42,220 nt of DNA from an uncultured virus (IMG/VR IMGVR_UViG_2061766007_000300). Taxonomy: Duplodnaviria; Heunggongvirae; Uroviricota; Caudoviricetes. A program made the position numbers and the translations under genes. Under the pieces are notes generated by a model. The model made no database searches. It was not told where the DNA came from and saw nothing but the letters and a program-made list of their open reading frames with translations. This document shows positions 4,528 to 42,220 of the stretch, one piece after another. How positions within the stretch are numbered: position 1 is the stretch's first letter; the number at the start of each line of letters is the position of its first letter. Location of the stretch: IMG/VR virus record IMGVR_UViG_2061766007_000300. One strand, 5' to 3'.

Positions 4528-4713
4528 TTACCCAGTTTTTTCCTATAATTGCTTAATTGCATTTACAGCATCTTTGCCGAGCTGTTGAACATCACATCTA
4601 TATTTATCTTCATAAGGTGTATTTATACAATACGGGCAATCTTTTTTATCACAATAATGATATATTATATTATGACCTTTGCAGAGTAATTTATCAATCA
4701 AATATTCATTCAT
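4528..4713 (-). CDS. Small Cys-containing hypothetical protein, code 15
   Basis: ATG overlaps the gyrB stop; 62 codons with one TAG. Confidence 0.4.
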
Positions 4714-5090
4714 TCTGTAATCTCCGAAAAATCAATATTATTAAAAATAAATTCTTTTCTTGGTTTTACATCTTCGCCCATCAAATCATAAAGAATACCA
4801 AGCGCGTCATCGCTATATTCCATAGCTTCCATACGCTGGTACTGTTCAGTAAACATAGATGCTCGTGCGGTTTCAGCCGGCAATTCACCGAGACCTTTCG
4901 CGCGCGTTACTTCACCTTTAATCTTACCGCGCACAGCGTTAAACTCCGCGTCATCAAAATAGTAACTTTCTTGCTTACCATTATTAACAATATAAAGTGG
5001 TGAGCGCAACCAGCACAGACGACCTTCTTTAATAAACTGCGGCGCAAGATAAGTCAGTGCAGCCATAATTAGAAGTCCAATATGGTATCC
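4710..5090 (-). CDS. gyrB: Gyrase/topo II subunit B, exon 2
   Basis: GYHIGLLIM...SPLY...RAKGLGE...LMGEDVKPRKEFI; continues the TOPRIM motif TDADSD|GYHI. Confidence 0.93.
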   Translation of the reverse strand, partial: GYHIGLLIMAALTYLAPQFIKEGRLCWLRSPLYIVNNGKQESYYFDDAEFNAVRGKIKGEVTRAKGLGELPAETARASMFTEQYQRMEAMEYSDDALGILYDLMGEDVKPRKEFIFNNIDFSEITE

Positions 5091-6215
5091 CAACGTAATC
5101 CAATGTTTCCATTGGCGCAGACTATATGTTACTCACTTGTGTGAGAATACTCTTTCCACCTACGTACCAATAGTAAGTGTACTCTCCTTCCGGGAGATAG
5201 TCGTTACAGGCTTCATTTATTAACCCAAATGCCTTGTTTTTTCTTATATATTGGAAGGTCTTTATAGGTGCGGCCCCACAATATTTGTTGTAATGTTTGA
5301 TAATTACATCNNNNNNNNNNGTCTTTTGTTTTTTCTTGTATATTGGGAGGTTTTTATAGGTGCGGCCCCACAATATTTGTTGTAATGTTTGATAATTACA
5401 TCTATCTTTATAATCATTATAGATACTGCGCGCATCTTCGTTTACATATCGTTCGCGCATTTTAATTACTTCTTCTGAAGTAAATTTTGCTATTTCAGAT
5501 TTACTGCCATCAGTTGCATGGAACTTATAATAGTTTAGATTTTCTTCGGTATAAACTTCTGGTTTGATTTCTTTCCAAGTTGTTCCGTCCCAAATACTTG
5601 CGAAAGTATCAAAACTAACTTTATCTTCAAATTGCTTATAAACTTCTTTTCGACGCATATGCTCATCATAGCATTCTCTTATATAAGCAACATCTTGATT
5701 TGTTAATTTAGTTCTACCGTTATTTTCTCCTCTATTATTGCCGCCACCAGCGCTACAATTATAACCAATTCCTTTAAATGTATTATAATATGCTATCCAA
5801 TAAATTTCTTTCTCATCGAGTTCTTCTAATTTACATTCTTCGATGATTTCAAATTTAAAGGCATCTGCGCCGTATTTCTAAATAGCAATTTCTATTGGTA
5901 TATCTTTTTTAGTTTTATGTTCTTGGAAACGTCTTTCTATATTGTTACTTTGTCCAATATAAGACTTTCCATTACTGATTTTTGTTATTTTATAAATGCC
6001 TATCATTGCGGCACCTCCACAATTTAGTAGGCTTGGGTTAATTCTGATTCCCACGGGATCTGCGTGCCCGCAAAGGGTTTAGCTTCTCTTACCACCATAA
6101 TCTTTCGATTTAGTTGCCCGTTAGCCTCTATATATAAGTAGAATATGTAAACCATCACTACAAATTTTTGAGACCCCGTTGGTTAACGGAAAAGTATTTA
6201 CAGACAGTTTTATTT
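5091..6215 (-). mobile_element. Group I intron in gyrB
   Basis: Exon 1 ends in U (GAU), intron ends in G; P7 elements ACGACUA and AUAUAGUC near the 3' end; splicing restores DADSDGYHI in frame. Confidence 0.9.
5213..6006 (-). CDS. Intron-encoded GIY-YIG homing endonuclease, code 15; 3' end duplicated across the gap at 5311-5320
   Basis: MIGIYKITKISNGKSYIGQS; in-frame TAG in IAI(Q)KYG; late-promoter motif at 6133-6140. Confidence 0.85.
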
Positions 6216-7685
6216 ATCTGAGTCAGCGTCGGTACAGATGGCTAGCCGTCCGTACCGCAACTTATTCTTGTCGTATTTCCCTGGCACAATATTCATCGCA
6301 CTCAAAAGAAGTTTAATTTCTTCGTTCTCAAAAATCTTTTCTTCGGGATTTGACAAGCAATTAATAATCTTACCCCTAATTGCTAAGATACCATACTTCT
6401 TGTAATCACGTGCCTGAGCCATACCGCCCATAGCACTATTACCTTCAACAATAAGAAGAGTTGAGTCTTGTCCAAGAAACTCCGCATCCTTTAACTTATC
6501 AGATGCAAAAACCTTTTTCTTTTGATTCTTTTCGATTTCCTTTGAAGCATTAAGAACTTGCTGGCGCGCCTTCTCCGCCGCAGCTTCCGCGCGAGCTACC
6601 TTCTGGAGTAATTCAACTACTTGGTCAAAATCAGCGCGCCGCTTTATATAAAAATCTTTAAGGGCGTTTGTTATTGCTGCTGATGTTGCAGTACGCGCCT
6701 CTGGATTGGCAAGAGCTGTCTTTTGTTGGTTTGTAAATTGACCCATTCGTACTTTAACACTTACAAATCCGTCCAATACATTACGAATAGTTTCACCTTC
6801 ATACTTTTCTTTACTTAAACTATTAAAAGTTTTAGTAAGAGAAGTTTTAAAACCACTTATAAAAGCGCCGCCGTCTGGCATAAACAAATTATTTGCGTAA
6901 CCACGAATTTGGCCGTTTTTACTTACCCATTGAAGTGCAAGTTCAACTTTACAATCATCTGTTTCATATTGATATGAAAATGGTGCGGATAATCTATTTT
7001 CTTTAGACAACCCATCTATAAGACCGCTTTGAGAATAAAACTCTTCTTGCGCGTCGTCAACATTTAAAATAATATGTAGTCCTGTAGAGAACATTGCCAT
7101 TTCTTTAAGTGTCGCGCGCAAAGCATCTATATCAATGAATATATCTCCATACACACGTGCATCTGGTTTATATTGAATCAATGTACCAGTTTCATCATTA
7201 CCGGGATGCTCTTTTACATCACAATCAGCATGCGCGCCCTCTTCGTCAGAGTGGAAGGACTGGAAGTATATTTTATTATCACGATATACTTCTACTGATA
7301 ACCACTCGGCTGTATGACAAACAATTTTATTACCCTCGCCGTTAATACCTACCGCGCTAGAATATACACCTTCTGTATGCTTACCACCTGAGTGTGGAAT
7401 AAGAAAAGCAGCAGTAAGTGAATTGATACCATCATCACGAATACCAACTGGAATACCGCGCATATTATCTTGCACCCAAATTTCTCTATTTTTAGTATCT
7501 AATTTAATAATTAATTTAGGATTTTTAGGTTTATATACTTCATACTCGTCTTGAACATTTACAATAAGTTCGCGCAATCCGAGATTAATAGCTTCTTGAC
7601 GGTCTGCAGAGAGATACATTCCTATCTTTTCTCGGAACGCGCGCCCTGCGGATAGAGAAACTATATCATTCGCCGTATAATTCAC
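6216..7685 (-). CDS. gyrB: Gyrase/topo II subunit B, exon 1
   Basis: GTG start after GGAGG; GHKL motifs (ELIVN, DNMRGIP, HSGGK), TOPRIM VEGNSA, IRGKIIN, ICTDADSD. Confidence 0.93.
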
Positions 7686-8421
7686 GAGTGATTTCCTCCA
7701 ATCTTTCTTCAATATCTTCTAAATAAGTTATATAATATAGTTTTATATTATTTTTTTGACAATAATCAAATTTTTCTTTATCACGCCTTTGTCTTTCAAT
7801 AAAAGATTCTTCTGTATTCCAACTATCTACTCTCCATTTAAAATGAATATCACCTTGGTATTCTATTAAACCTAATAAATCATTATTTTCATTAAATAAG
7901 GCAAAATCAAATTGATAAGGTTTTGTTATACAAATAAAATCTTTAAATGAATACTCACTTTCATATTTATAATGATGGCTATTTAACCATTTAGTAATAG
8001 TTACATTGCCTACTGAATTAATACAACCACAAGATTTAGTATCTCCAAAATTTAAATATTGATGTTGTACTTCACATACATTACCACAGTCGCACTGACA
8101 TTTCCAAAGGCGTCTTCTTTTTCCGTTCGCTCCAGTAATGAAACCGGCTTCTTCTAAAACTACTAACTTACCAAATCTTAACCCTGTTAAATCTCCGCCT
8201 CTTTGTAGATTAGATTGAATTGCCCTTTCTTTTTGATAGCAACCGCAAGATTTGGTATTACCAGAGCGTAAATGTTTTCCTAATACTATAACTTCATTAC
8301 CACAATCACATTTACATTTCCACATGGCACGTCCGTCTTTACTATTCGGTGCACGCTCTATTACGGTTAAATACCCATATTTATTACCAATTTCATTTTT
8401 TAAACTAGACATATTCATCAC
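7666..8421 (-). CDS. Free-standing homing-type endonuclease (CDCG repeats plus PD-(D/E)xK-like domain)
   Basis: Two WKCxCDCG...KSCGC modules, FDFAL...IEYQG; late-promoter motif at 8428-8435; overlaps the gyrB start. Confidence 0.85.
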   Translation of the reverse strand: MMNMSSLKNEIGNKYGYLTVIERAPNSKDGRAMWKCKCDCGNEVIVLGKHLRSGNTKSCGCYQKERAIQSNLQRGGDLTGLRFGKLVVLEEAGFITGANGKRRRLWKCQCDCGNVCEVQHQYLNFGDTKSCGCINSVGNVTITKWLNSHHYKYESEYSFKDFICITKPYQFDFALFNENNDLLGLIEYQGDIHFKWRVDSWNTEESFIERQRRDKEKFDYCQKNNIKLYYITYLEDIEERLEEITRELYGE

Positions 8422-13605: not shown

Positions 13606-13983
13606 TTATAAATTTTTCGGTACTTTTATTCTATCATTATGCCAGCGAGAGGTAACAAGGTATTTCTTCTATATTAAATTATTATAATTTTTAATACTAT
13701 TATTGTCTAAATCCCAATATGGAATTCTATATAGTGGTATATTATGCGCGAGAGCATAAGAATTTTTACGTCTATCTCGTTCCTTCTAAGCTTTAAGTTC
13801 CTATTCGCCTCTTATTGGTTTGAAATGAAACTATCCATCAATTTCTAGAATCGTATTTGTAGAGGGAATATAGAAATCATATCTATATTTTCCTCCTCTT
13901 AAATCGCTAAAAGTTTTTTCTCGCTAAAATTTGATGGCGGCCGCCTTCAAGATTTTAACTATTTTTTCTTCATAACTACTCAT
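13606..13983 (-). CDS. Vsr/DUF559-like PD-(D/E)xK endonuclease, code 15
   Basis: F(Q)REKTF...YRYDFYIP...LEIDG(Q)FHF...LYRIPYWD; 126 codons. Confidence 0.8.
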
Positions 13984-28345: not shown

Positions 28346-28879
28346 TTAATTATTATATTTTTTATCTTTCATAAACTCTCGTGCCTAAGCTTCTAACTAT
28401 TCTAATGTTCCATTATTTGCAATAACCATATCGTATAAATCTGGATTAAAATTCTCATATTTATCCGCACTATTATCTAAACTTTCTTGCGACGCGCGCT
28501 AGATAAGTATAGCTTGTGCATTAAAAGCAGTACGGAACTTTTCTATCTCAGAAGGTTCCCTTACATCAATAAAGAAAATTAATCTATCACTATCATAATC
28601 TCTCATGTCCATCCAACGACAAATAGTTCTTATATAGTTACTTACATCTTTAAATGGATAATTATTATAGTCTATTAAAAGCTATTTTAAATCCGCTAAA
28701 AACTTGCGGTCTTTCGGTTCTTTGTTTCCATCCCATCCACACTACTTTGCGATTTTTTTAACTCCGTCAATAGAAGAATAAATTCTTACATAAACGGGAT
28801 TTAGCGCAAAGCAGTAGTTCTCAAAAGTAGTTTTACCACTTCCAAGTTAAGGAAGGCCATTAATTATATAGACCTTCAT
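28346..28879 (-). CDS. P-loop (deoxy)nucleoside monophosphate kinase-like protein, code 15, with an in-frame TAA at codon 11
   Basis: MKVYIINGLP*LGSGKTT; KIAK(Q)CGWDG..DRKFLADLK; FFIDVREP; IANNGTLE. Confidence 0.75.
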
Positions 28880-29840
28880 TTATCATCACCTACCTTAGAT
28901 ATTCTAAATTTAATTTATTATAATCAGTATATTTAATTTCTATTAAAGGAATATTATTTAACTAACAATATTCTTTTTTTAATAAATCTCTTTTGTGTAA
29001 TTCTTGTAATTCTAAATCATTGTACCATGGCGCGAGGTGCATTTTTTTATACTCATCAAAATAATGTTGTTCACCCTAATATTCTATTAAACCAATTAAT
29101 TTATTTTCTGTATCAAAAATAGCAAAATCAAAATATAATGGCAATGGAGAATCTTTAGAATAGTCTCTTAAATTAGTAAAAGAAAATTGAGTTTTAAAAT
29201 TACATTTAAGCTCTTGTAAAATGCTCTATATTTTCTATTCACCTTTCGACTTTAAACACCCACATGATTGACATAATCCACTACGTAGTGATTTAGAAGT
29301 AGTTATTTTTAAATTACCGCAATCGCATTGGCATAACCACAAAAATCTATTATCAGAGTTTTTTCCAACATAAGAAAGAACTGTTAATTTACCATATTTG
29401 TTTCCAGTTTCATCTACAAAATTATTTTCTATCTTTTTCTATTTTGCACATTCATCACAACATTTATTTTTTCTTCTGTTTAAATTGGTTGTAGATAAAT
29501 ATATTATATTCCCACATTTACAAATACATTTCCAAATTCTTGATTTTTTCCCATCTTTTTTATTATCTTCTTTAAATAAAGAATCTATATATAAATTACC
29601 AATTTGTTGTCCAGCTAAATCTCCACCAGCGCGCGTAATATTAGACTCTTTAGCGCGTTCTCTCTACAAACATCCACATGATTTTGTATTGCCGTTGCGT
29701 AATGAAGTCCCAGAAACATCAACTTCATTACCACAATCACATCTACAATGCCAATATGCTTGCCCTTTACGACTTTCTACTTTATATAATACAGTTAAAC
29801 GCCCGTATTTATTGCCAATTTCATTTATAATTCTACCCAT
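28860..29840 (-). CDS. Free-standing homing-type endonuclease (CDCG repeats plus PD-(D/E)xK-like domain), code 15
   Basis: 327 codons; paralogous to 489..1208 and 7666..8421; late motif at 29867-29874. Confidence 0.82.
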
Positions 29841-29922
29841 AATAATACCTCTTTTTTCTTTCTAAATATAAGTGATAGTTATTATAAATGGGTATACTAA
29901 AATGGATACCATTTATCATATT

Positions 29923-33445: not shown

Positions 33446-34933
33446 ATGAATAAGTTTACGAATGCGATTAAAGAAACTACTTCCCAGAAGCTGACGGAGA
33501 ATGGAGCCTTTGCGTATAATACTACGGAAAGTGACCTTTTGGATTTGTTTGCGGAGATTGGTGCGTTGCGCCCGAGAACTGAGGCGGAAATTACTGAAAA
33601 GTTCGAGAGAGCTTTTAAGGAAGATGCGACTCTCGCTATGCGTATGGCTTTCTATGCGCGTGACGTAAGATTCGGCGGACTCGGTGAGCGCCGGACGTTC
33701 CGTATTATCCTTAAGTGGATTTGCGAAAATTATCCGGAACTTGCTACGGCTAATATTCCGAATATTACTACTTTCGGTCGTTTCGATGACCTCTATACTT
33801 ATGTTGGTACAGAGGCAGAAGAGGCTATGTGGAAGTATATGTATACGACTCTTACAAATGACTATGAGCGTATGCTTGAGGGTAAGCCGATTTCTCTTCT
33901 TGCTAAGTGGCTGAAGTCCATTAATACCTCTAGCCGTGAATCTCGTAAGCTCGCTCGCCTTACGCTTAAGAACCTCGGCTTCCATAACGAACGCCATTAT
34001 CGTAAGGTTTTGGCTCGTATGAGGGATTACCTTAATGTAGTTGAAAATCGTATGAGCGCGCAGGAGTGGGATAAGATTAACTATTCTCAGGTTCCGGCTT
34101 ATGCGATTAAGAACTATGGTAGCGCTTTTGCAAAGCATGATTACGAGCGGTGGAACCAGTACCTTAAGGACTTGCAGAAGGGTACTACTAAGGTTAATGC
34201 GAGTACTTTGTATCCGTATGATTTGGTTCACCAGTATATGGATAAGTACTATGGTGATAGCTATGGTCCTAATACTCTTACCGAAGCCCAGTGGAAGGCT
34301 CTACCGGATTATGTGGGTGATGGTGCTAATGTAATGGTTATGGCTGATGTTAGCGGTTCGATGATGGGGCGTCCGATGGAAACTTCGATTGGTCTTGCGG
34401 CGTACTTCGCGCAGCGTAACCATGGTCCGTTTGCGGGTCTTTTCCTTACGTTTACCGACATTCCTCGGTACATCCATGTGCGGAGTGATGATAAGCTCTA
34501 TACTATGATTAATAAGATTCGTCAGAACGTCGGTTATAATACCAATTTGGATAAGGCTTTTAATCTTATTTTGGATACGGCTCTTAATAATCACGTTCCT
34601 CAAGAGGACTTACCTCGCGCGCTTGTAGTTGTCTCTGATATGGAGATTGACTCCTATGTGAGATACCATGGGTTAGATTTCGTTAAGACTTGGAGAGAGC
34701 GGTTTAAGGCGTATGGGTATGAGCTTCCTCAGCTTGTACTCTGGAATGTGGAGGCGCGCAACGATACGTTCCTTACGAAGATGGCGACTAAGGGAGTTAC
34801 TTTCCTTTCTGGTCAGAGTGCATCTACGTTCAGAAGCCTTATCGATACGTTGAACTGTAAGAGTGCGTATGAGGCAATGGTGAAGGTTCTTATGAACCCC
34901 GCCTATGACGTAGTAGTTACTAAGGTAGCATAA
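33446..34933 (+). CDS. DUF2828-family, TROVE/Ro60-like protein with C-terminal vWA domain
   Basis: TENGA, ARDVRFGGLGER, GRFDDL, LLAKWL, LYPYDLV, MIDAS DVSGSM, SDME; no in-frame TAG. Confidence 0.85.
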   Translation: MNKFTNAIKETTSQKLTENGAFAYNTTESDLLDLFAEIGALRPRTEAEITEKFERAFKEDATLAMRMAFYARDVRFGGLGERRTFRIILKWICENYPELATANIPNITTFGRFDDLYTYVGTEAEEAMWKYMYTTLTNDYERMLEGKPISLLAKWLKSINTSSRESRKLARLTLKNLGFHNERHYRKVLARMRDYLNVVENRMSAQEWDKINYSQVPAYAIKNYGSAFAKHDYERWNQYLKDLQKGTTKVNASTLYPYDLVHQYMDKYYGDSYGPNTLTEAQWKALPDYVGDGANVMVMADVSGSMMGRPMETSIGLAAYFAQRNHGPFAGLFLTFTDIPRYIHVRSDDKLYTMINKIRQNVGYNTNLDKAFNLILDTALNNHVPQEDLPRALVVVSDMEIDSYVRYHGLDFVKTWRERFKAYGYELPQLVLWNVEARNDTFLTKMATKGVTFLSGQSASTFRSLIDTLNCKSAYEAMVKVLMNPAYDVVVTKVA

Positions 34934-35348: not shown

Positions 35349-35657
35349 ATGGCAAATAAGCGAGCAACTTATAAAGTAGAGTTTAGTTTCGATGGATTGT
35401 CCCTTGCGGAGCAGGATAGACTTTATAGAGTCCTTGGAAGTGTTCTTTCCCAGGATTTGAAAGACCATATGAATATTAAGGTTACGGATTTGATTGGTGG
35501 CATGCATGATATTTTTTCTAATAAAGGTGTGCGGCCAGATGGTATTATTTGTGATAATTGTCCGTATGTAGATTGCGCGGACTGTAAACTTTGGAAGAAA
35601 GTAGTAGAACTAAATAAAGAGAAAGAAGAGAAGGAGAAGAATAGTTCTAATGGATAA
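35349..35657 (+). CDS. Hypothetical protein with a CxxCxxxxCxxC motif
   Basis: 102-aa ORF, AAGGA RBS. Confidence 0.7.
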   Translation: MANKRATYKVEFSFDGLSLAEQDRLYRVLGSVLSQDLKDHMNIKVTDLIGGMHDIFSNKGVRPDGIICDNCPYVDCADCKLWKKVVELNKEKEEKEKNSSNG

Positions 35658-36156
35658 TAGTTCTTATCGTTATAATGTTGACCCTGAGAAGGGTGTTACG
35701 GCTTGTATCGTAAAGCATAGAGACTTTGAAGAACTCGTTGAGGATTATGCGCTAAATAAGGTTTTTCGTATTATTGCGAATAATAAGGCGCGCCGTATTG
35801 GTTTGAATAACTTGGCACATAGTGTACTTAATAATTATGTTAAGCCTGCTATTGAGAAGGCCATTGGTGGCGGTGACGCGCATACTCTTGCTCGTTGCAA
35901 TTATGAGAAGGAAGAGGTTTTTGATGAAGAGTATGGTATGCTGTTGGCGGCCCGTCGTATGGATTTGCTGGTTGCTCGGACGGCATTGAGCGTACTGGAT
36001 ACGTGGCTTCAGGATATTGAGTTTATTGAAACCGCTATTGGTGAGCGTGGATATAATATTGAGAATTATATGTTCGCGCTGAAGCGAGATTTGAAGGAAC
36101 TTACTATGGACCCCGTAGAAGAAGAAGTTTCTGATTGCGGAAGTTGTGAGATTTAA
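35650..36156 (+). CDS. Hypothetical phage protein
   Basis: 168 aa; ARC...FDEEYG.LLA..R motif. Confidence 0.75.
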   Translation: MDNSSYRYNVDPEKGVTACIVKHRDFEELVEDYALNKVFRIIANNKARRIGLNNLAHSVLNNYVKPAIEKAIGGGDAHTLARCNYEKEEVFDEEYGMLLAARRMDLLVARTALSVLDTWLQDIEFIETAIGERGYNIENYMFALKRDLKELTMDPVEEEVSDCGSCEI

Positions 36157-36199
36157 ATAAAATTTTAGAGCGGCCGCCCTCTAAGTAGGCGGCATATAT

Positions 36200-36334
36200 G
36201 GGGGCGTGGTGGAATCGGCAGACACAACGGACTTAACGGTATGAGGCAAACCGTAGTAGGGTTATCACCTACCATATCGACCAAATCCGTTTTGCTTTAC
36301 GCGAGTGTGGGTTCAAGTCCCACCGCCCCTACCA
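36200..36334 (+). tRNA. tRNA-Leu(UAA) interrupted by a 47-nt tRNA-like insert (36237-36283)
   Basis: Class II cloverleaf, anticodon stem ACGGA/TCCGT, loop CTTAA|AA after removal, GTTCAAGT T-loop, ACCA end. Confidence 0.85.
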
Positions 36335-36505
36335 TTTAATTTGGATACGCATAGGCTTGGGTAAGAGGACCCTATAAGTAGTTGATAGTGGAACAATAAC
36401 CTATACGTAATATCACTAGTTCGAATTTTAAAATTCGTACCATTTTTTTATATTCGTATTATAATTAATTTACTTATAATTAGAGAAAATAAAGGAGAAT
36501 TTTTT

Positions 36506-37486
36506 ATGATAGGAATATATAAAATAACAAATAAAGTTAATGGAAAAAGTTATATTGGTTAGTCTGTTGATATAATGGATAGATGGAAATCTCATAGAAA
36601 TAAACCATTTAACTAGAATAGTAAAGATTATGACTCTCTTTTTTATAGGGCAATTCGTAAATATGGGTTAGAAAATTTTGACTTTGAAATAATAGAAGAA
36701 TGTAAAAAAGAAGAATTAAATGAAAAAGAAAGATATTGGATAAAATTTTATCATACCTATGCTGGTGATATTGATAATAACGGTTACAATTTAACTTTGG
36801 GTGGAGAAACAAATGCAGTAACGCAGCAATAGATAGATAATGCAGAAGAAATAAAACAATTATTATTAACTACTCAAATAACTTAGGTAGAAATAGGTAA
36901 AAAATTTGGCTTAAGTCATGCTTCAGTTAGTTATATTAATAATGGAAGAGCTTGGCATGATGATAATTTAATTTATCCATTGAGAGAGCCCGTTGGAGTT
37001 ACTCCTAAGGAAATTAGAGAAAAAGAATGTTTTTGTGTTGATTGTGGAAAATAGATAACTAATAAAGCTAAACGTTGTTATGAATGTAATTTATTATATT
37101 TAAAAGAAAAGAACCGAAAATAGCCTCCGGTCACAAGGGATGAATTAGAAAAACTTCTTTTACAAAATAATGGTAATTTTGTAGAAGTAGGTAAAGTTTT
37201 TAATTTAACAGATAATGCTATTCGTAAATGGTGTGACAAGTTCGGTCTATCAAGACATTCTAATGATTATAAAGAGAAAAAAGAAAAACCTAAGAAATCT
37301 TTTGAAATTAAAAAAGTTATAATGTTAGATATTAACACCGGAGAAGAGTTAAAAGAATTTGCTAATTCAGAATAGGCAGGCGCGTATCTAGGAAAAACTT
37401 CTGGCACGCATATTCGAGAAGCGGCCGCAGGAAAAAGAAAAACTGCATATGGATATAAATGGAAATTTAAAAATGTGGCGGAGTAA
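36506..37486 (+). CDS. GIY-YIG homing endonuclease with NUMOD-like C-terminus, code 15
   Basis: MIGIYKITNKVNGKSYIG(Q)S; GYNLTLGG; TAYGYKWKF; 327 codons; late motif at 36471. Confidence 0.88.
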
Positions 37487-37551
37487 CTCAAAAGGAGAGT
37501 GCCATCTTTACACGGTGGAAGTTGAGATTGCAAAATTCTCCTCCGCTACCA
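37477..37551 (+). tRNA. tRNA-Val(UAC)
   Basis: CCATC-TTTACAC-GGTGG anticodon arm; ACCA end; atypical T-loop. Confidence 0.82.
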
Positions 37552-37644
37552 GGGGAGCGAGAGAAGCTAGCTTATTAGTACCATATGCTACGATAAGTTG
37601 GTGAAACAATAGTCTAGATGATATCTCGTAAGAACTCCCTACCA
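37552..37644 (+). ncRNA. CCA-terminated structured RNA that is not a cloverleaf
   Basis: GGGGAG/CTCCCT-ACCA acceptor-like stem; CGAGA/TCTCG and CTTAT/ATAAG inner stems. Confidence 0.55.
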
Positions 37645-37645
37645 A

Positions 37646-37719
37646 TGGGACCTAGTATAAAGGTAGTACTTCTGTCTCCAAAACAGAAAGTCTCCGTTCG
37701 AGTCGGAGGGTTCCGGCCA
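37646..37719 (+). tRNA. tRNA-Trp(CCA)
   Basis: TCTGT-CTCCAAA-ACAGA; TTCGAGT T-loop; GCCA end. Confidence 0.9.
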
Positions 37720-37727
37720 TTAATTTT

Positions 37728-37836
37728 TAGACGCGTGAACAGCGAATTTAGGATGAATAGCTTAACGGTTTAAGCATCTATTATTTAATAGAAGACTGTC
37801 GGTTCAAATCCGGCTTTACCCGCACATTTGCGTCTA
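37728..37836 (+). ncRNA. Y-RNA-like element enclosing a degenerate tRNA cloverleaf
   Basis: TAGACGCG/TGCGTCTA closing stem, ACAGCGAAT motif, inner D arm and GGTTCAAATCC T arm, 6-nt anticodon loop, no CCA. Confidence 0.65.
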
Positions 37837-37854
37837 GTATATAAGGAGAATTCT

Positions 37855-38031
37855 ATGGAAAGTAATAATATAGAATTTGTAAATTTAAATCTTTATTACG
37901 AAAAACTTAAAGAGTGCGAGTAGTGCGCGCTCTTTTATTTAGAATGTAGAGGGCCTACGGTTATAGAACCATTTTGCCCTAAACAGAATGGATTTATTCC
38001 TATATAGGGAGTAATAGAATAGGGATTTTAA
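37855..38031 (+). CDS. Small Cys-containing hypothetical protein, code 15
   Basis: AAGGAG RBS; 59 codons. Confidence 0.5.
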
Positions 38032-38050
38032 AATTTAGGATTTTTAAATC

Positions 38051-38079
38051 TTGAAATTTTTTTAAAATTCTGATATAAT
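38051..38079 (+). promoter_or_regulatory. Sigma70-type early promoter
   Basis: TTGAAA-17-TATAAT with extended TG. Confidence 0.82.
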
Positions 38080-38109
38080 ATTTATAGAAAGTTAAGAGAA
38101 AAACTTTTT

Positions 38110-38316
38110 GAGCTGGCCAGCACCGCGCTGCAGAAAGCTCGTTAAACACGGGGCTGCGGTAAAGCGTTAACACGAGGTTTTATGGTTTGAACTAGGGTAT
38201 TTTACCCCATGCGGAAAACGCTATAGAAAGAAGCGAAGGGAAACCATAAACTGGATACAGACCCAGTATAAAAAGGTGTCGCGCTAATAGACCGCAAGTT
38301 CGCAATAGTCTATTAC
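38110..38316 (+). ncRNA. Unassigned GC-rich structured RNA
   Basis: Follows a promoter, no credible ORF; stems GAGCT/AGCTC, TTTATGGTTT/AAACCATAAA, TAATAGAC/GTCTATTA. Confidence 0.5.
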
Positions 38317-38318
38317 TT

Positions 38319-38481
38319 GGGAATGTAGCTCAGCCCGGTAGAGCCCGCGCCTGTAGTAAATTGGTGTAATAGCGCACATTGGGGCCGGTGATTCGTTCAC
38401 AGTCCCGAAGGAACAAGTGCAATTCTTGTATTTACTTCCATAAGCGCGTTGTCGTAGGATCGAAGCCTACCGTTCCCGCCA
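38319..38481 (+). tRNA. tRNA-Asn(GUU) interrupted by an 86-nt nested tRNA-like insert (38355-38440)
   Basis: GGGAATG/CGTTCCC-G-CCA; stem CGCGC/GCGCG; loop CTGT|TAA after removal; G73 fits Asn. Confidence 0.8.
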
Positions 38482-38549
38482 TAGGGCGCTCGCATTTATT
38501 GGTCTCTTTGATTTGCGCCCATTCATAAAAGAGCAAATGTAGACCACAA

Positions 38550-38673
38550 TAGATACGTACAGCAAATATATTCATTCGATCTGCAAAATCGCGTGTCGTG
38601 GGTTCAAATCCCATCGGAACTTTCGAGTTCTGTAACTCAGTCTGGTAGAGTAGTATATGAAAAAACGTATCTA
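38550..38673 (+). ncRNA. YrlA/Y-RNA-like RNA containing a circularly permuted tRNA (GCA anticodon-like arm)
   Basis: TAGATACG/CGTATCTA stem, ACAGCAAAT; order anticodon arm, T arm, acceptor stem closed by TTCG, D arm. Confidence 0.75.
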
Positions 38674-38808
38674 GAAAATTTTATAGGGAGTAGAGTAACG
38701 GCACCCCTAATTAATAGACTTATCACCTATTTAATTAAAGGCTCTAATATTATAAGTAGTATGGAGTGATAACCAGAACAATGTAATATTATCCATACCG
38801 TGAAACCT

Positions 38809-38886
38809 CGGGATGTAGGGTAAGAGGCAACCCGCCTGTTTTGGGGACAGGAGATTTTGCTACTTCGAGTGTAGTCGTCCCGACCA
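38809..38886 (+). tRNA. tRNA-Pro(UGG)
   Basis: CGGGATG/CGTCCCG-ACCA; CCTGT-TTTGGGG-ACAGG. Confidence 0.9.
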
Positions 38887-38979
38887 ATTTGGAACCCAAG
38901 ACTATAATTATGACTAAATTATTATAGTCTATTTTATTATTTTTTACTTATAATTAGAGAAAAATAAAGGAGAAAAATT

Positions 38980-39561
38980 ATGAGTAAAAAATTAACTAAT
39001 GAAGAAGTATAGTTACGTATAAAGGAATATTTTTTATAGGATGTGAAATTAGTTTCTGATTATAAAAATAATAAAACTAATATAAGATTACATTGTAACG
39101 AGTGTGGATACGAATGGGAAACGAGGCCGACTTAGGTGATTTATCCAGATTATGAACACTCTTGTCCTAATTGCAAGTTTGAAAGTACTGGGATAATAGT
39201 AACTTGTGCTTATTGTGGAAAAGAAATAAGAAGAACTAACCACGCAATAAATAAAAATTAGAGCGGTTATTATTATTGTAGTCGTGAATGTGGTAATCGA
39301 CATAAAAATATGCTTCGTAAGCAAAGTGGTGAATGGGACCAGTCTTTAAATTATCGACTACGCGCATTTGAAAATTTAGAACACAGGTGCGTTGTTTGTG
39401 GATGGGATGAGGATGAAAGAATTTTGGAAGTCCATCATAAAGATGAGGATAGAGCTAATAATGATTTATCTAATTTAGTAATTTTATGTCCGACCTGTCA
39501 TAGAAAAATTACTTTAGGTTATTATTTGTTAACTGAAGATTATCAGTTAATAGAGAAATAA
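38980..39561 (+). CDS. HNH endonuclease with N-terminal Zn ribbons, code 15
   Basis: 194 codons; CVVCG...LEVHHKD..RANN...NLVILCPTCH; late motif at 38945. Confidence 0.85.
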
Positions 39562-39573
39562 AGGATAAAATTT

Positions 39574-40020
39574 ATGCCTCAATCAAAAATAAATGTTAAA
39601 GAACTTAGAAAATTAAAAGGAACTAAATGTTGTAATTGTGGTGATGAATGCGGTGATAATATTATTTTTCATCATATTATACCTATAAGTATAGGTGGGA
39701 ATGATATTGAAAGTAATATTGTACCATTATGTACTTTATGCCATAATTTATTACATGGAATTAGCAAAGATGGAAAAATTTCTCATTCAGAATTAACCAA
39801 AAGAGGAATTGAACGTGCAAGAGCCGAAGGAAAACAGATTGGTGGCGTTAAGGGTTCAACTTATAATGTGAAGAAAAAGGAAAAAGCTATAGAAATAATT
39901 AAAAAATATTCTATTACTTTTGGTGGTCCTTTAAATAATTTAGAATGTATGCAAATGGCAGACATTTCTAACGGAACTTTTTATAAATATCTTAGAGAAT
40001 TAAAAAAGGATTAGAAATAA
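39574..40020 (+). CDS. HNH endonuclease with resolvase-like C-terminal HTH
   Basis: HHIIPISIGG...NIVPLCTLCHNLLH; TKRGIERARAEGK; ends at TAA after TAG readthrough. Confidence 0.82.
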
Positions 40021-40080
40021 TCGTACTAAAAACTCCTAAACCTTTGCGGGTAGTATAGGCTAAATCCGCCTCCTTTTTAT

Positions 40081-40156
40081 GCGCCCGTAGCTCAGTGGAT
40101 AGAGCAAGGGCCTTCTAAGCCCTGTGTCGTGCGTTCGAGTCGCACCGGGCGTGCCA
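40081..40156 (+). tRNA. tRNA-Arg(UCU)
   Basis: Canonical cloverleaf, AGGGC-CTTCTAA-GCCCT, GCCA end. Confidence 0.95.
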
Positions 40157-40188
40157 ACGTATTAAAAGAAAGGATATAGGATATTTAT

Positions 40189-40275
40189 GGGTAGATATGC
40201 CTAGTAGCGAGGGCCCGTGACTGTAAATCACGTACACAAGAAACATCGATGGTGCAATTCCATCTCTGCCCACCA
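40189..40275 (+). tRNA. tRNA-Tyr(GUA)
   Basis: CGTGA-CTGTAAA-TCACG, long variable arm, ACCA end. Confidence 0.9.
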
Positions 40276-40344
40276 TTAGTAAATAGTAAACTAAAAAGTG
40301 TCTGAACAAAAGCCAAATAGAGTGAGGTTTATTATTTACTCTTT

Positions 40345-40415
40345 CCGCTATTCGTATAACAGTAGTACGTCAGGCCTCCAACCTGAGAGCGCGAGGGCGG
40401 CACTCGCATGGCGGT
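40345..40415 (+). tRNA. Atypical tRNA-Gly(UCC) lacking encoded CCA
   Basis: CCGCTAT/ATGGCGG-T; TCAGG-CCTCCAA-CCTGA; C33 and T-loop GGCGGCA are non-canonical. Confidence 0.65.
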
Positions 40416-40416
40416 C

Positions 40417-40466
40417 GGTTACAAGAACCAGCCTTCTCGTGGCGTAACTGTTTTAACTAATGGTTC
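40417..40466 (+). ncRNA. Minimal HDV-like (theta) ribozyme
   Basis: P1 GGTTAC/GTAACT with G1-U wobble, P2 GAACCA/TGGTTC, P3 GCC/GGC, L3 TTCTCGT, C-TAA before P2'. Confidence 0.78.
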
Positions 40467-40550
40467 AAATTTTTAAAAATGGTCCAAATTTTTATACTCT
40501 TTTTATTATTTTTTTACTTATAATTAGAAGAAAATAATAAGGAGTTTTTT

Positions 40551-41294
40551 ATGATAGGAATTTATAAAATAGAGAACTTAGTAAATCATAAATTATATGT
40601 TGGGCAAAGTATTGACATAGAAGAAAGATATAAATAGCATATTTATAAAGCTTTTAATAATAATGAACGAGCATACAATTCAGCAATTCACCAAGCTTTT
40701 AGAAAATATGGAATCGAAAATTTTAAATTAGAAGTGATTGAATAGTGTAATATTGATGAATTAGATGAAAAAGAGATATATTGGATTAAATAGTTAGATA
40801 CTATTTCTCCTAATGGATATAATATATCATTAGGCGGCCAATTTAATAAAGCTTCTAATAAAAGATTTTGTCCCTTATGCGGTGAAGTTATGACTAAAGG
40901 AGCAGATTTGTGCTTAAATTGCTATTTAAAAGAAAAGTCTAAACATCTACCAAGCGCTGAAGAATTAAAAGAAAAATTAATAGAATATAATGGTAATTTT
41001 ACTCAAGTTGGTAAATTATATGGCGTAATAGATAATTCAGTTAGAAAGTGGTGTAAAAAATACGGTATGCCGTATCATAGTAGCGATTATAAAGTAAAGC
41101 CACAAAAAAAACCAAATAAAATTCCAGTAGATTAGTTAGATCCAAATACCGGAGATATAATCCAAACTTTTGAAAGTGCTAATGCTGCTGCGCACTCTTT
41201 GGGGAAAAACCGTGGTAGTCATATAACAGAAGCATGTCAAGGAAAATTTAATATTATTTATGGATATAGATGGTAGTATCATAAAGATTTTTAA
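40551..41294 (+). CDS. GIY-YIG homing endonuclease, code 15
   Basis: MIGIYKIENLVNHKLYVGQS; PNGYNISLGG; 248 codons; late motif at 40515. Confidence 0.88.
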
Positions 41295-41296
41295 TT

Positions 41297-41325
41297 TTGA
41301 CTTTTTCTTAAATTTTTGGTATAAT
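41297..41325 (+). promoter_or_regulatory. Sigma70-type early promoter
   Basis: TTGACT-17-TATAAT with extended TG. Confidence 0.82.
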
Positions 41326-41358
41326 ATATATAGAAAATGAGAAAGGGATAAAAAAAAT

Positions 41359-41547
41359 ATGGCTAAAAGATTTCCTGAAGTTGGCGATGCAATCCATATT
41401 TATCATATGTTCGGAGAGTCTGAATATAATGATACAGAAGGTGTTGTAACTCGTATCGATGATATGGGACAAATTCACGGGACTTGGGGCGGTCTTGCTC
41501 TTGTACCTGGTGATGATTACGAAATCATCGAAGAAGATGAACTATAA
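41359..41547 (+). CDS. DUF4314-like small protein
   Basis: GD.I....M.GE...EGVV..IDDMGQIHGTWGGLALVPGDD. Confidence 0.7.
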   Translation: MAKRFPEVGDAIHIYHMFGESEYNDTEGVVTRIDDMGQIHGTWGGLALVPGDDYEIIEEDEL

Positions 41548-41584
41548 TATATATATAGAAAGTTAAGAGAAAGGGAAAAGTAAT

Positions 41585-41818
41585 ATGAGTCATTACTATA
41601 CTAAAGAGAAGTCTTACGAAGAAGAACTCGAATGGTATCGTAGTCGCATAGAGTTTTATCGTGCGCGGTGGGATAAGTGTTGTAGGCTCGATAAAGAGTA
41701 TTGTAACTATCTTGAGCGCTGGTTTAGTAATGATAGGTGTGATGGTGCGCCGGACTACGAAACAAGAGTTTTGTGGAAGCGTTTGCCGATGGCTTATAAT
41801 ACTTATTGCTTTGAATAA
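41585..41818 (+). CDS. Hypothetical protein
   Basis: 77-aa ORF with AAGGG RBS. Confidence 0.6.
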   Translation: MSHYYTKEKSYEEELEWYRSRIEFYRARWDKCCRLDKEYCNYLERWFSNDRCDGAPDYETRVLWKRLPMAYNTYCFE

Positions 41819-41822
41819 TTTT

Positions 41823-41911
41823 GGCTTCGTGGCTGAGAGGTCGATAGCGGCGCCCTGCTAAGGCGTTGAAGGCTTTGCTTTCCGGTAGTTCGAATCTACC
41901 CGAAGTCGCCA
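41823..41911 (+). tRNA. tRNA-Ser(GCU)
   Basis: GCGCC-CTGCTAA-GGCGT, long variable arm, GCCA end. Confidence 0.93.
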
Positions 41912-41913
41912 AT

Positions 41914-41988
41914 GGTCCCTTCGTCTAATGGCAAGGACGCAAGATTTTCATTCTTGCAATATGGGTTCGACTCCCGTAGGGGCTACCA
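41914..41988 (+). tRNA. tRNA-Glu(UUC)
   Basis: CAAGA-TTTTCAT-TCTTG, ACCA end. Confidence 0.93.
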
Positions 41989-41996
41989 TAATTTAT

Positions 41997-42072
41997 GCCA
42001 AAGTAGCTCAGTTGGTAGAGCAGCGCACTTGTAATGCGCAGGTCAAGAGTCCGAGTCTCTTCTTTGGCTCCA
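41997..42072 (+). tRNA. tRNA-Thr(UGU)
   Basis: GCGCA-CTTGTAA-TGCGC, TCCA end. Confidence 0.93.
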
Positions 42073-42220
42073 AAGTCTGCGGGACTATAAGCCGCTACCA
42101 GGACTATAAGAAATTATAGGTTGGTACTTCCTTAGATAAGATAATAAACTAAGGCGGTCGCGTCGAAACAGCGTATAGTATGGGTGAGCTTATTTAACTA
42201 TTTTGGGAACGATTAATAGT

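Follow-up and report, generated by a model that had tools for sequence, protein, structure and literature searches.

RESULTS

A tRNA-Leu(UAA) gene split by a mini-tRNA

In an uncultured bovine gut (rumen) phage, a gene for tRNA-Leu(UAA) is interrupted within its anticodon loop by a 47-nt insert that is itself shaped like a small tRNA, and inserts following the same rule split tRNA genes in six distinct events among this phage and its relatives. Inserts of this class are complete non-decoding mini-tRNAs, which run from base +1 of an acceptor-like stem to a CCA end. We consider it probable that the insert is removed and that the tRNA works, whatever the enzymes involved. A more specific reading, which we hold with a little more doubt than belief, is that the insert is an intron-like and probably mobile element, the ends of which would be cut by tRNA end-processing enzymes and the exons of which would be sealed by an ATP-dependent RNA ligase, with the enzymes named here as candidates.

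The window (IMG/VR record IMGVR_UViG_2061766007_000300, i.e., the whole stretch of 42,220 nucleotides that was analyzed) is part of this phage. TAG is read as a sense codon, as many frames, those of homing endonucleases among them, would otherwise be closed. The tRNA array begins at position 36200, and GIY-YIG and HNH genes lie between its tRNA genes. At 1.3 kb upstream of the array lies the gene of a DUF2828/vWA protein (PHROG "RNA-binding protein"), which found no match in a PDB sequence search.

The tRNA-Leu(UAA) gene, of the long-arm type, occupies positions 36200-36334 (135 nt), and its anticodon loop is split by the 47-nt insert at 36237-36283. The first-pass annotation had described an interrupted tRNA-Leu(UAA) at this place, and the description holds: the sequence is as stated, and the outer tRNA is matched by the Rfam tRNA model (RF00005), which spans the insert end to end (36200-36331, 44.1 bits versus a gathering score of 29) and is covered over all of its 71 positions (1-71). 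When introns were disallowed, ARAGORN missed the gene; when introns were allowed, it reported a 135-nt gene with a 47-nt intron. The parts of the gene, with the evidence for each, are as follows:

36200..36236, + strand: 5' exon of tRNA-Leu(UAA), comprising the acceptor 5' strand, the D arm, the anticodon stem 5' strand ACGGA and the loop bases CTTAA (Rfam tRNA match, ARAGORN with introns)
36237..36283, + strand: 47-nt tRNA-shaped insert (direct reading, fold, rule scan, ARAGORN on the joined exons)
36237..36243, + strand: inner acceptor-like 5' strand CGGTATG (pairs with 36273-36279 in the minimum-energy and centroid folds)
36245..36252, + strand: weak 2-bp hairpin GG-CAAA-CC, the "vestigial D hairpin" (minimum-energy fold only)
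36256..36272, + strand: T-arm-like hairpin with a 5-bp stem GTAGG/CCTAC and a 7-nt loop GTTATCA (fold; directly abuts the acceptor 3' strand)
36273..36279, + strand: inner acceptor-like 3' strand CATATCG (fold)
36280..36283, + strand: inner discriminator A plus CCA, the last bases of the insert (direct reading, rule scan)
36284..36334, + strand: 3' exon of tRNA-Leu(UAA), comprising the loop bases AA, the anticodon stem 3' strand TCCGT, the long variable arm and the T arm, and ending with the acceptor 3' strand, A73 and an encoded CCA (Rfam match, ARAGORN with introns)

When the two exons are joined in silico, ARAGORN run without introns calls a plain tRNA-Leu(taa) with a standard cloverleaf and a 7-nt anticodon loop, which confirms the earlier claim that removal of the 47 nt restores a CUUAAAA loop. 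The placement of the insert slides by one A, i.e., 36236-36282 (loop position 35/36) gives the same product as 36237-36283 (36/37). Depending on the offset, removal of 47 bases would give UAA, UCA or CCA as the anticodon, and the default ARAGORN junction, two bases leftward, would give UCA (a SeC call).

The relatives of the phage help to set the junction. In the nearest one (locus L004, flanking protein 92% identical), the 5' exon of tRNA-Leu is identical over the first 34 nt compared and the 3' exon is 94% identical. A 411-nt insertion lies there between U34 and A35, with an Rfam group I intron match (44.5 bits, E = 4e-10), two bases upstream of the insert site of the window (one base if the insert is slid). 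The ligated exons of L004 give the same loop as the restored tRNA-Leu of the window, all 20 distinct tRNA(UAA) genes of the clade have the same anticodon loop, and the loop-masked exon body of the window gene finds its best match among tRNA-Leu(UAA) genes. Because these three lines of evidence agree, we read the anticodon as UAA and place the insert at 36/37. Group I introns are also found in the tRNA-Leu genes of L009 (61.8 bits), L010 and L011, with HNH genes inside the L010 and L011 introns, and the gene is uninterrupted in L002, L005, L006, L007, L013 and L033. Since the relatives carry either an uninterrupted gene or a group I intron at 34/35, interruptions of this tRNA-Leu are tolerated when they can be spliced.

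Shape of the 47-nt insert

Folded alone, the insert has as its minimum-energy structure a 7-bp terminal stem with a G3.U70 pair, a 5-bp/7-nt hairpin and a free ACCA, in agreement with the acceptor stem, hairpin and ACCA end proposed in the first-pass annotation. Twelve linker bases lie between the 5' acceptor strand and the hairpin, and the segment layout is 7-12-5-7-5-7-4. When all 135 nt are folded as one transcript, the outer anticodon stem is present alongside the inner helix. The fold energy is ordinary (z = −1.36, with 17 of 200 shuffles folding as well): the signal of this insert is its topology and geometry, not its stability.

Two further elements of the tRNA likeness stand only in part. 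The proposed vestigial D hairpin is present in the minimum-energy fold but is weak (2 bp) and absent from the centroid. The proposed T arm is a 5-bp/7-nt hairpin abutting the acceptor 3' strand, but its loop is not a canonical T-loop: on direct reading, the signature (first base U, fifth base A) is absent. In its predicted fold, the insert has the layout of a minihelix substrate of bacterial RNase P, i.e., a 7-bp acceptor stem coaxial with a 5-bp stem and a single-stranded 3' NCCA.

No second copy of this insert was found: a BLAST search against all loci returned the window only, and the covariance models R1 and R3 yielded none either. Model R3, built from the 47-nt inserts of relatives, misses the insert of the window at E up to 10 with filters off. 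In an exact-pattern scan of IMG/VR its 5' junction was not found, and a search of the phage isolate collection was negative. Given the lack of a second copy and the miss by the look-alike model, the helices of this particular insert have no covariation support of their own. What the insert shares with the 47-nt inserts of the relatives is architecture and segment lengths, not demonstrable sequence kinship. Charging by AlaRS through the G3.U70 pair was also considered and rejected, as the other five events do not retain this pair.

One rule, six events

The rule followed by the inserts is that each comprises everything from +1 of the inner acceptor stem through CCA. The scanner based on it demanded that the insert open with the 5' strand of a 7-bp stem, that a 5-bp hairpin directly adjoin the 3' strand of this stem and that the insert close with a single discriminator base followed by CCA. 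For the outer tRNA, it demanded a 5-bp anticodon stem and a 7-nt loop with U33 once restored. Relatives were fetched with the DUF2828/vWA protein, which gave 29 metagenome loci and 31 IMG/VR loci (29 of them new); on the new loci, ARAGORN with introns allowed reported further interrupted tRNAs.

The scanner returned 14 matches in 894,546 bases of 62 records, 13 of which lie inside interrupted tRNA genes; the remaining one is false, being a normal tRNA flanked by A+T-rich sequence. The controls gave one match in the reversed sequence and 0, 0 and 1 matches in three local shuffles. Because many loci are near-duplicates of each other, we count the 13 true matches, on 13 contigs of the clade, as six distinct events (Leu three times, Asn, Thr and Gln):

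Window: tRNA-Leu(UAA), 47-nt insert, loop position 36/37
Window and L009: tRNA-Asn(GUU), 86-nt insert, loop position 35/36
L033/L034: tRNA-Thr(UGU), 87-nt insert, loop position 34/35
L047/48/49/56: tRNA-Leu(UAA), 47-nt insert, loop position 32/33
L053/54/55: tRNA-Leu(UAA), 47-nt insert, loop position 32/33
L059: tRNA-Gln(UUG), 51-nt insert, loop position 35/36

Four different loop positions, from 32/33 to 36/37, are thus represented among the six events. Rule-based removal of the insert leaves a plain tRNA according to ARAGORN in all the genes concerned (9/9). In every event (6/6), all the outer stems are intact and removal gives a 7-nt loop, U33 and a fitting anticodon. The default ARAGORN junctions gave Arg, Glu and SeC for the Thr, Gln and window Leu genes, respectively; the loop-masked exon bodies of these genes best match Thr(UGU), Gln(UUG) and Leu(UAA) genes, as the rule predicts. 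Overall, ARAGORN either missed, or named SeC, Tyr, Arg or Glu, genes that are Leu, Asn, Thr or Gln.

The first-pass annotation had noted that the Leu and Asn inserts of the window are unrelated in sequence and follow the same +1-to-CCA rule, which was borne out. It had also argued that two such cases speak for a shared mechanism rather than chance. The four further events and the 14 matches versus 0-1 in the controls support and extend the case for a common rule beyond chance, with RNase P as a candidate enzyme.

Among the interruptions reported by ARAGORN, three were discarded or set aside: in our reading, i(34,181) of L041 is false, as it spans the 3' end of an adjoining tRNA, and i(36,90) of the same locus is false, having no plausible acceptor stem; i(34,14) of L002 has a poor anticodon stem. 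The tRNA at 8567-8671 of L041, in contrast, is real, and its rod-like extension of 31 nt represents another type of insert. In a separate observation, eight tRNA-Leu genes and three unrelated places in IMG/VR were found to contain the 18-nt hairpin motif of the L047/L053 family.

The tRNA-Asn(GUU) gene of the same array

The second interrupted gene of the window carries a longer insert:

38319..38481, + strand: tRNA-Asn(GUU) gene (ARAGORN with introns, rule scan)
38355-38440, + strand: 86-nt cloverleaf-like insert in this gene, between anticodon bases 35 and 36

The identical insert is present in L009, and no match to it was found in an exact-pattern scan of IMG/VR. An insert-less allele also exists: DNA contigs of runs X5 and X6 join position 38354 to 38450 through nine letters, and these are the start of an L009-type 3' exon, so that the allele lacks the insert precisely. 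For this gene, the comparison of the loop-masked exon body was ambiguous.

Between the Asn genes of the window and L009, 9 of the 77 exon positions differ and none of the 86 insert positions does (P = 9e-4 if differences fell at random). In our reading of the alignment, six of the nine exon differences compensate each other pairwise, in one pair of the acceptor stem and two pairs of the anticodon stem. An identical insert in diverged exons suggests, as far as these two copies tell, a recent spread.

Constraint on inserts and exons, and signs of mobility

In the five 47-nt inserts, 9 of the 12 inner pairs have changed on both sides, with 100% of the positions still paired; as this alignment was partly picked by a scanner that demands pairing, the latter value is partly built in. 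The same interrupted genes were found by ARAGORN, which is blind to the inner fold. The 86- and 87-nt inserts are homologous to each other: 8 of their 27 pairs have changed on both sides with 96% pairing, including three of the seven acceptor pairs and four of the five T-stem pairs, the D arm and the long non-decoding arm are nearly identical, and the T-loop signature is kept. The covariance model built from them also matches genuine tRNAs (18-33 bits), and the element is therefore tRNA-shaped.

The 47-nt inserts of L047 and L053-55 have their linker and hairpin sequence in common, and their acceptor stems are wholly different and fully paired. The 51-nt insert of L059 was left out when model R3 was built, and the model matches it (22.4 bits, E = 0.003). 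The insert families have no conserved sequence core in common.

Two widely differing types of outer tRNA-Leu gene, one of 77 nt and the other of 87 nt, have related inserts at a shared site. The complete genome G005 encodes 13 tRNAs, and its sole tRNA-Leu(UAA) gene is the interrupted one. Furthermore, across 29 IMG/VR records, each insert family occurs once per record, only within the anticodon loop and never free-standing. The compensation within exons, the shared site, the sole Leu(UAA) copy and the distribution of the inserts together argue for outer tRNAs that stay functional and for an exchange of inserts from genome to genome. On these comparisons, the inserts probably behave as mobile or exchangeable elements at the DNA level.

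RNA ligases and other candidate enzymes

Within the 42 kb of the window there is no RNA ligase, the only gene of this kind being DNA-ligase-like. In the clade as a whole, three RNA ligase types are present, i.e., Rnl2-like (L062), OB-fold plus ligase (L063) and T4 Rnl1-like (L064). Matches to PF09414 ligases were obtained in 13 of 16 phage records. These ligases are not specific to insert carriers: of 10 relatives whose loci showed no such insert, 9 have them as well.

The Rnl1-type ligase (PF09511) is more restricted (7 of 25 records). It is present in all four searched carriers of the 32/33 Leu inserts (G004, G025, G005 and G006), and the other three records with it (G012, G013 and G022) form one lineage that has only the different, rod-like 31-nt hairpin-type tRNA insert. 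It is absent from all 15 records that show neither a rule-type nor a hairpin-type insert, and also from G003, G017 and G030, of which G003 has the OB-fold ligase. As the carriers make up about three lineages, we take the association between Rnl1-type ligases and inserts as a hint and not as a test.

In three lineages, the Rnl1-type gene adjoins a conserved kinase-like gene and lies 6-13 kb from the interrupted tRNA. Two of the kinase-like proteins were compared (26% identity, E = 6e-11); they have no Pfam match, and the nearest named Atlas clusters are kinase families, which is a weak lead.

Other searches for processing enzymes were negative: the tRNA splicing endonuclease EndA/Sen (PF01974) was found in 0 of 25 related phage records, RNase Z-like Lactamase_B_2 (metallo-beta-lactamase) in 0 of 25 records and RtcB in 0 of 6. 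A reverse transcriptase is present in 5 of 25 records, none of which is an insert carrier, and a phage-encoded route of retro-insertion thus gains no support.

DISCUSSION

A possible splicing scheme

The junctions follow the ends of the insert and not its place in the host loop, a bulge-helix-bulge cannot form and no catalytic core is shared between insert families. Enzymes recognizing tRNA ends offer the simplest scheme. An acceptor/T minihelix with a 3' NCCA is a substrate of bacterial RNase P, and both RNase P and RNase Z leave 3'-OH and 5'-phosphate ends. Within the transcript, the minihelix would fold next to the outer tRNA. The host RNase P would cut at the 5' end of the inner acceptor stem, leaving the 5' exon with a 3'-OH, and an endonuclease of the RNase Z/BN type would cut right after the inner CCA, leaving the 3' exon with a 5'-phosphate. 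The body of the outer tRNA would then hold the exon ends together as a nick in the anticodon loop, and an ATP-dependent RNA ligase encoded by the clade (Rnl1, Rnl2 or Rnl5 type) would seal it, the predicted product being a tRNA with the standard CUUAAAA loop. Such 3'-OH and 5'-phosphate ends could be sealed by Rnl-type ligases without healing, and T4 Rnl1 seals anticodon-loop nicks. In this proposal it is the insert, and not the host tRNA, that determines where the cuts fall, and any place in the loop could therefore accommodate it.

The precise endonucleolytic cut after the internal CCA is the weakest step of the scheme. Thermotoga RNase Z and E. coli RNase BN are able to cut after CCA; many RNase Z enzymes are inhibited by it. 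Points against the scheme are that exonucleolytic 3' maturation would destroy the 3' exon and that no RNA ligase gene lies in the 42 kb of the window.

Taken in its widest form, the proposal is that the inserts add a third class of tRNA intron to the self-splicing group I and the bulge-helix-bulge introns: a leaderless mini-tRNA, the own mature ends of which are the splice sites, cut by RNase P and an RNase Z/BN-type enzyme, sealed by a phage ligase, spreading between phage tRNA genes and perhaps protecting them from homing endonucleases. We put this forward tentatively, as a possibility that we ourselves regard as somewhat doubtful. As a speculation, an insert lying beside the group I site may shield the gene from intron homing endonucleases.

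Alternative explanations

The insert might not be an intron at all. The true product could be the mini-tRNA, set free by RNase P together with 3' trimming and serving as a decoy or another non-decoding tRNA mimic, or the locus could yield no useful RNA, with the outer tRNA sacrificed and the insert persisting as a selfish element, e.g., by destroying a homing endonuclease site. Spliced RNA was not seen: two metatranscriptome runs (X20 and X21) and two DNA runs were compared with 35600-42220, none of the joints listed lies at the insert, and the RNA runs gave zero cover at 36042-36262. The tRNA genes here encode CCA, and in many bacteria the 3' ends of CCA-encoding tRNAs are made by exonucleases, a process that would degrade the 3' exon. 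A selfish element would also be at home in an array crowded with GIY-YIG and HNH genes, with mobile group I introns in the same tRNA of the relatives, and the recent spread suggested by the identical Asn insert in diverged exons fits it as well. However, loss of the outer tRNA agrees poorly with intact outer stems, a restorable 7-nt loop, U33 and a fitting anticodon in six events out of six, with the compensatory changes in the exons and with the only Leu(UAA) copy of the complete genome G005 being an interrupted one. Moreover, free-standing copies of the insert would be expected if the mini-tRNA were the product, and none was found. We judge this explanation unlikely. It is also unlikely, to a slightly greater degree, that the insert is excised and the tRNA restored by a dedicated, so far unrecognized endonuclease reading the mini-tRNA shape, with 2',3'-cyclic phosphate and 5'-OH ends healed and sealed by phage RNA repair genes. 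The evidence for functional exons applies equally to this route; the adjacency of the Rnl1-type gene and the kinase-like gene in three lineages with interrupted tRNAs speaks for it, and T4 Rnl1 acts together with a kinase-phosphatase. Yet such an endonuclease was not found (splicing endonuclease domain in 0/25 records, RtcB in 0/6), the kinase-like protein, lacking a Pfam match, may be a protein kinase, and a repair kit against host anticodon nucleases would explain the ligase and kinase genes without any intron.

Chance resemblance, an assembly artefact or the degraded stump of a group I intron is extremely improbable as an explanation and is largely refuted. The insert of the window is a singleton with an ordinary fold energy, and its nearest relative carries a group I intron within this loop, which could point in this direction. 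Chance is opposed by the recurrence of the rule well above the controls, and an artefact by the four runs of the probable source sample, which hold 82-100% of the sampled words of the window (although these runs are not independent of the assembly). As for a stump, the flanks exclude the group I site 34/35 on direct reading, a short-word BLAST search with the insert gives only chance matches of 10-14 nt, and there is no Rfam match to an intron or ribozyme. Small self-cleaving ribozymes (hammerhead, twister, pistol, hatchet and HDV-like) were likewise rejected, having no Rfam match at E up to 10 over 36150-38950.

Implications

To our knowledge, only self-splicing introns are known from the tRNA genes of bacteria and their phages. 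The six events bring together an exact, sequence-independent rule, a free position within the loop, covarying inner stems and ligases of the clade, and the resulting scheme can be tested at the bench, with named cut sites, predicted end chemistry and predicted effects of mutants. If excision by tRNA end-processing enzymes is true, ordinary tRNA maturation enzymes would double as splicing machinery, phage RNA ligases would gain a role beyond repair, and the under-counting and mis-naming of the tRNAs of uncultured phages by standard finders would be explained.

Comparison with known systems

tRNA-shaped modules that direct cleavage are known from other settings. The mascRNA of MALAT1 is a tRNA-like signal cut by RNase P and RNase Z, and plant mitochondrial t-elements are reported to be another (PMC1920247). 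In both, a tRNA-shaped module in a longer transcript sets exact cleavage at its own ends. Unlike the inserts described here, t-elements and mascRNA mark transcript ends, nothing is re-joined and no other tRNA is interrupted.

The sealing step has its nearest parallel in tRNA repair. Pnkp and Rnl1 of phage T4 repair tRNA against the PrrC anticodon nuclease. The likeness consists of a break in the anticodon loop sealed by an Rnl1-type ligase, and Rnl1-type genes occur in carriers of the 32/33 Leu inserts. However, the T4 system repairs damage done by a host nuclease and does not remove an encoded insert, and we know of no link between T4-type tRNA repair and introns.

The protein-spliced introns of archaea and eukaryotes (EndA/Sen, then RtcB or Trl1) are similar in being short, in lying within or close to the anticodon loop and in being excised by proteins before the exons are ligated, as is proposed here. 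The bulge-helix-bulge motif (two 3-nt bulges and a 4-bp helix) was rejected for the insert of the window, as the fold shows a 5-nt by 6-nt internal loop beside a 7-bp helix. In contrast to that motif, the events described here have a 7-bp helix between their junctions, where one side leaves 1-5 bases unpaired and the opposite side five or more. The position ranges from 32/33 to 36/37, the loop is split differently among the six events, and the hosts are presumably bacteria.

The group I intron of tRNA-Leu(UAA) in cyanobacteria and plastids (RF00028) lies at U34/A35, i.e., in the same gene and the same loop. The insert of the window sits one to two bases further 3' and has no sequence likeness to the group I introns of the relatives. 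A group I intron was rejected for the window: a search of 36150-38950 with RF00028 found nothing at E up to 10, only 35/36 and 36/37 are compatible with the flanks, and the insert ends in A and not in G. Furthermore, since the Rfam group I matches of the relatives span 309-399 nt, a 47-nt insert is too small for a group I ribozyme.

Besides one report of 2019, which is the closest precedent, we found no description of such inserts in the literature. That report, on the Lak megaphages, describes "enigmatic" introns of tRNA genes, one of which is said to "encode a possible tRNA"; in the parts of it considered here, no mechanism, rule or ligase link is proposed (Devoto et al. 2019, PMC6784885). 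As described in those parts, the two sets have in common that the inserts lie in the anticodon loop, occur in TAG-recoded gut phages and are not group I introns, and the Lak inserts are likewise identical across samples and present or absent between strains (PMC6784885). The Lak phages are a different lineage, of about 540 kb and 26% G+C according to the same parts (PMC6784885). In Table S6 (A1, A2, C1 and cholera-cohort fragments), compared by eye, the 3' junction is directly preceded by a tRNA-like module in all four insert types (Tyr, Phe, Thr and Gly), as here (PMC6784885). In these listed sequences, a 5' hairpin and an A-rich linker precede the tRNA-like part, so that the 5' junction is not at +1, unlike in all six events described here; the Lak inserts end at or just after the discriminator without CCA, and the Lak tRNAs are listed without CCA, whereas the inserts here end in CCA (PMC6784885). 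For the part of that report compared, a 3' junction at the discriminator is the parallel to be expected if 3'-end processing sets the 3' splice site; the 5' junction, given the hairpin and linker, needs another explanation. Relative to the Lak inserts, those described here are new in being leaderless, in ending with CCA, in their free position within the loop and in belonging to a different phage clade.

Other tRNA and tRNA-like genes with extra bases in related phages

Besides the tRNA genes interrupted by a mini-tRNA, two further kinds of enlarged tRNA or tRNA-like gene were identified among the loci of related phages:
L041 8567-8671 (also in L044 and L058), tRNA with a perfect cloverleaf and a rod-like insert
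L002 13486-13577 (also in L005, L010, and L011), conserved tRNA-like gene, read by ARAGORN as Leu(gag) with a 14-nt intron

In the former, 31 nt lengthen the anticodon arm into a rod of ~19 bp (z = −5.6), and the insert is of the hairpin type, without CCA. The lineage that carries it also encodes an Rnl1-type RNA ligase. The anticodon region of the latter holds ~14 additional bases, the anticodon stem is poor, and the L011 copy of the gene scored 37.5 bits against Rfam. As a separate observation, a peripheral part of the tRNA-Leu group I intron in the related locus L009 (3400-3500) starts out, as judged by eye, like a long-arm tRNA in its 5′ half.

An RNA ligase paired with a kinase-like protein

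The gene for the Rnl1-type ligase, which resembles T4 Rnl1, forms a conserved pair with that of an unannotated kinase-like protein in three related loci:
L064 1231-2337 with 2576-3385, Rnl1-type RNA ligase and kinase-like protein
L062 42-749 with 1384-2364, Rnl1-type RNA ligase and kinase-like protein
L041 19771-21401, Rnl1-type RNA ligase and kinase-like protein

The two kinase-like proteins that were compared share 26% identity (E = 6e-11) and had no match in Pfam; a weak Atlas lead pointed to kinase families. In the related phage record G004, the pair is followed by a second ligase, which is Rnl2-like.

Unusual tRNA genes and structured elements of the array

Several atypical genes and structured-looking elements lie in the tRNA array of the window; one of them is listed with its counterpart in L004:
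36335-36410, 75-nt element immediately 3′ of tRNA-Leu
37477-37548, tRNA-Val(UAC)-like gene with a cloverleaf (Rfam 46.8 bits), overlapping the end of a GIY-YIG frame
37554-37645, 92-nt RNA-like element 3′ of the tRNA-Val(UAC)-like gene, closed by an acceptor-like stem and bearing ACCA
37751-37823, tRNA whose anticodon loop is abnormal (anticodon "tt" in ARAGORN)
L004 7121-7193, counterpart of the previous tRNA in the closest relative, reading AAA
38101-38315, 215-nt structured-looking element just 5′ of tRNA-Asn

The 75-nt element is ~86-91% conserved in L002, L005-L007, and L009-L011, and its part at 36353-36408 is 100% identical in L004. In the relatives, the next tRNA begins right where this element ends, and the closing stem of the element presents compensatory pair changes, as judged by eye. 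The 215-nt element lies upstream of tRNA-Asn in the window, whereas in L009 it is located downstream; in one DNA contig of run X6, 19 other letters stand in its place. Its last 60 nt are matched by contigs from the RNA libraries of runs X20 and X21.

The tRNA-Val(UAC)-like gene was not called by ARAGORN, and the 92-nt element next to it has a counterpart in L004. The tRNA with the abnormal loop may decode in an unusual way, for example through an expanded loop.

TAG recoding and homing-endonuclease-like genes

TAG is a sense codon in this phage: it occurs in frame within GIY-YIG and other genes (36506-37486, 40551-41294, and many further frames). The amino acid read at TAG is probably Gln, and a tRNA with anticodon CUA is present in the related complete genome G005.

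The window also bears a very heavy load of homing-endonuclease-like genes. Further features are:
4710-7712, gyrase B gene split by a GIY-YIG gene
489-1208, 7666-8421, 13606-13983, and 28860-29912, a repeat-bearing protein that occurs four times and has a DUF2726-like endonuclease end

A Y RNA-like element and a DUF2828 protein

Two further features of the window concern a possible Y RNA:
38590-38659 (wider 38560-38700), permuted-looking tRNA matching Rfam YrlA
33446-34933, DUF2828/DUF7788/vWA protein (PHROG 850, "RNA-binding protein"), 3.7 kb upstream of the YrlA-like element

In the former, the order is T arm, acceptor stem capped by a TTCG loop, D arm. Its match to YrlA, the bacterial Y RNA-like family, reached 36.5 bits (E = 1e-5) and thereby falls short of the threshold for that family (69). 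A sequence search of PDB with the DUF2828 protein gave no match. Together, the YrlA-like element and the DUF2828/vWA protein may represent a phage pair of the Ro60-like/Y-RNA kind.
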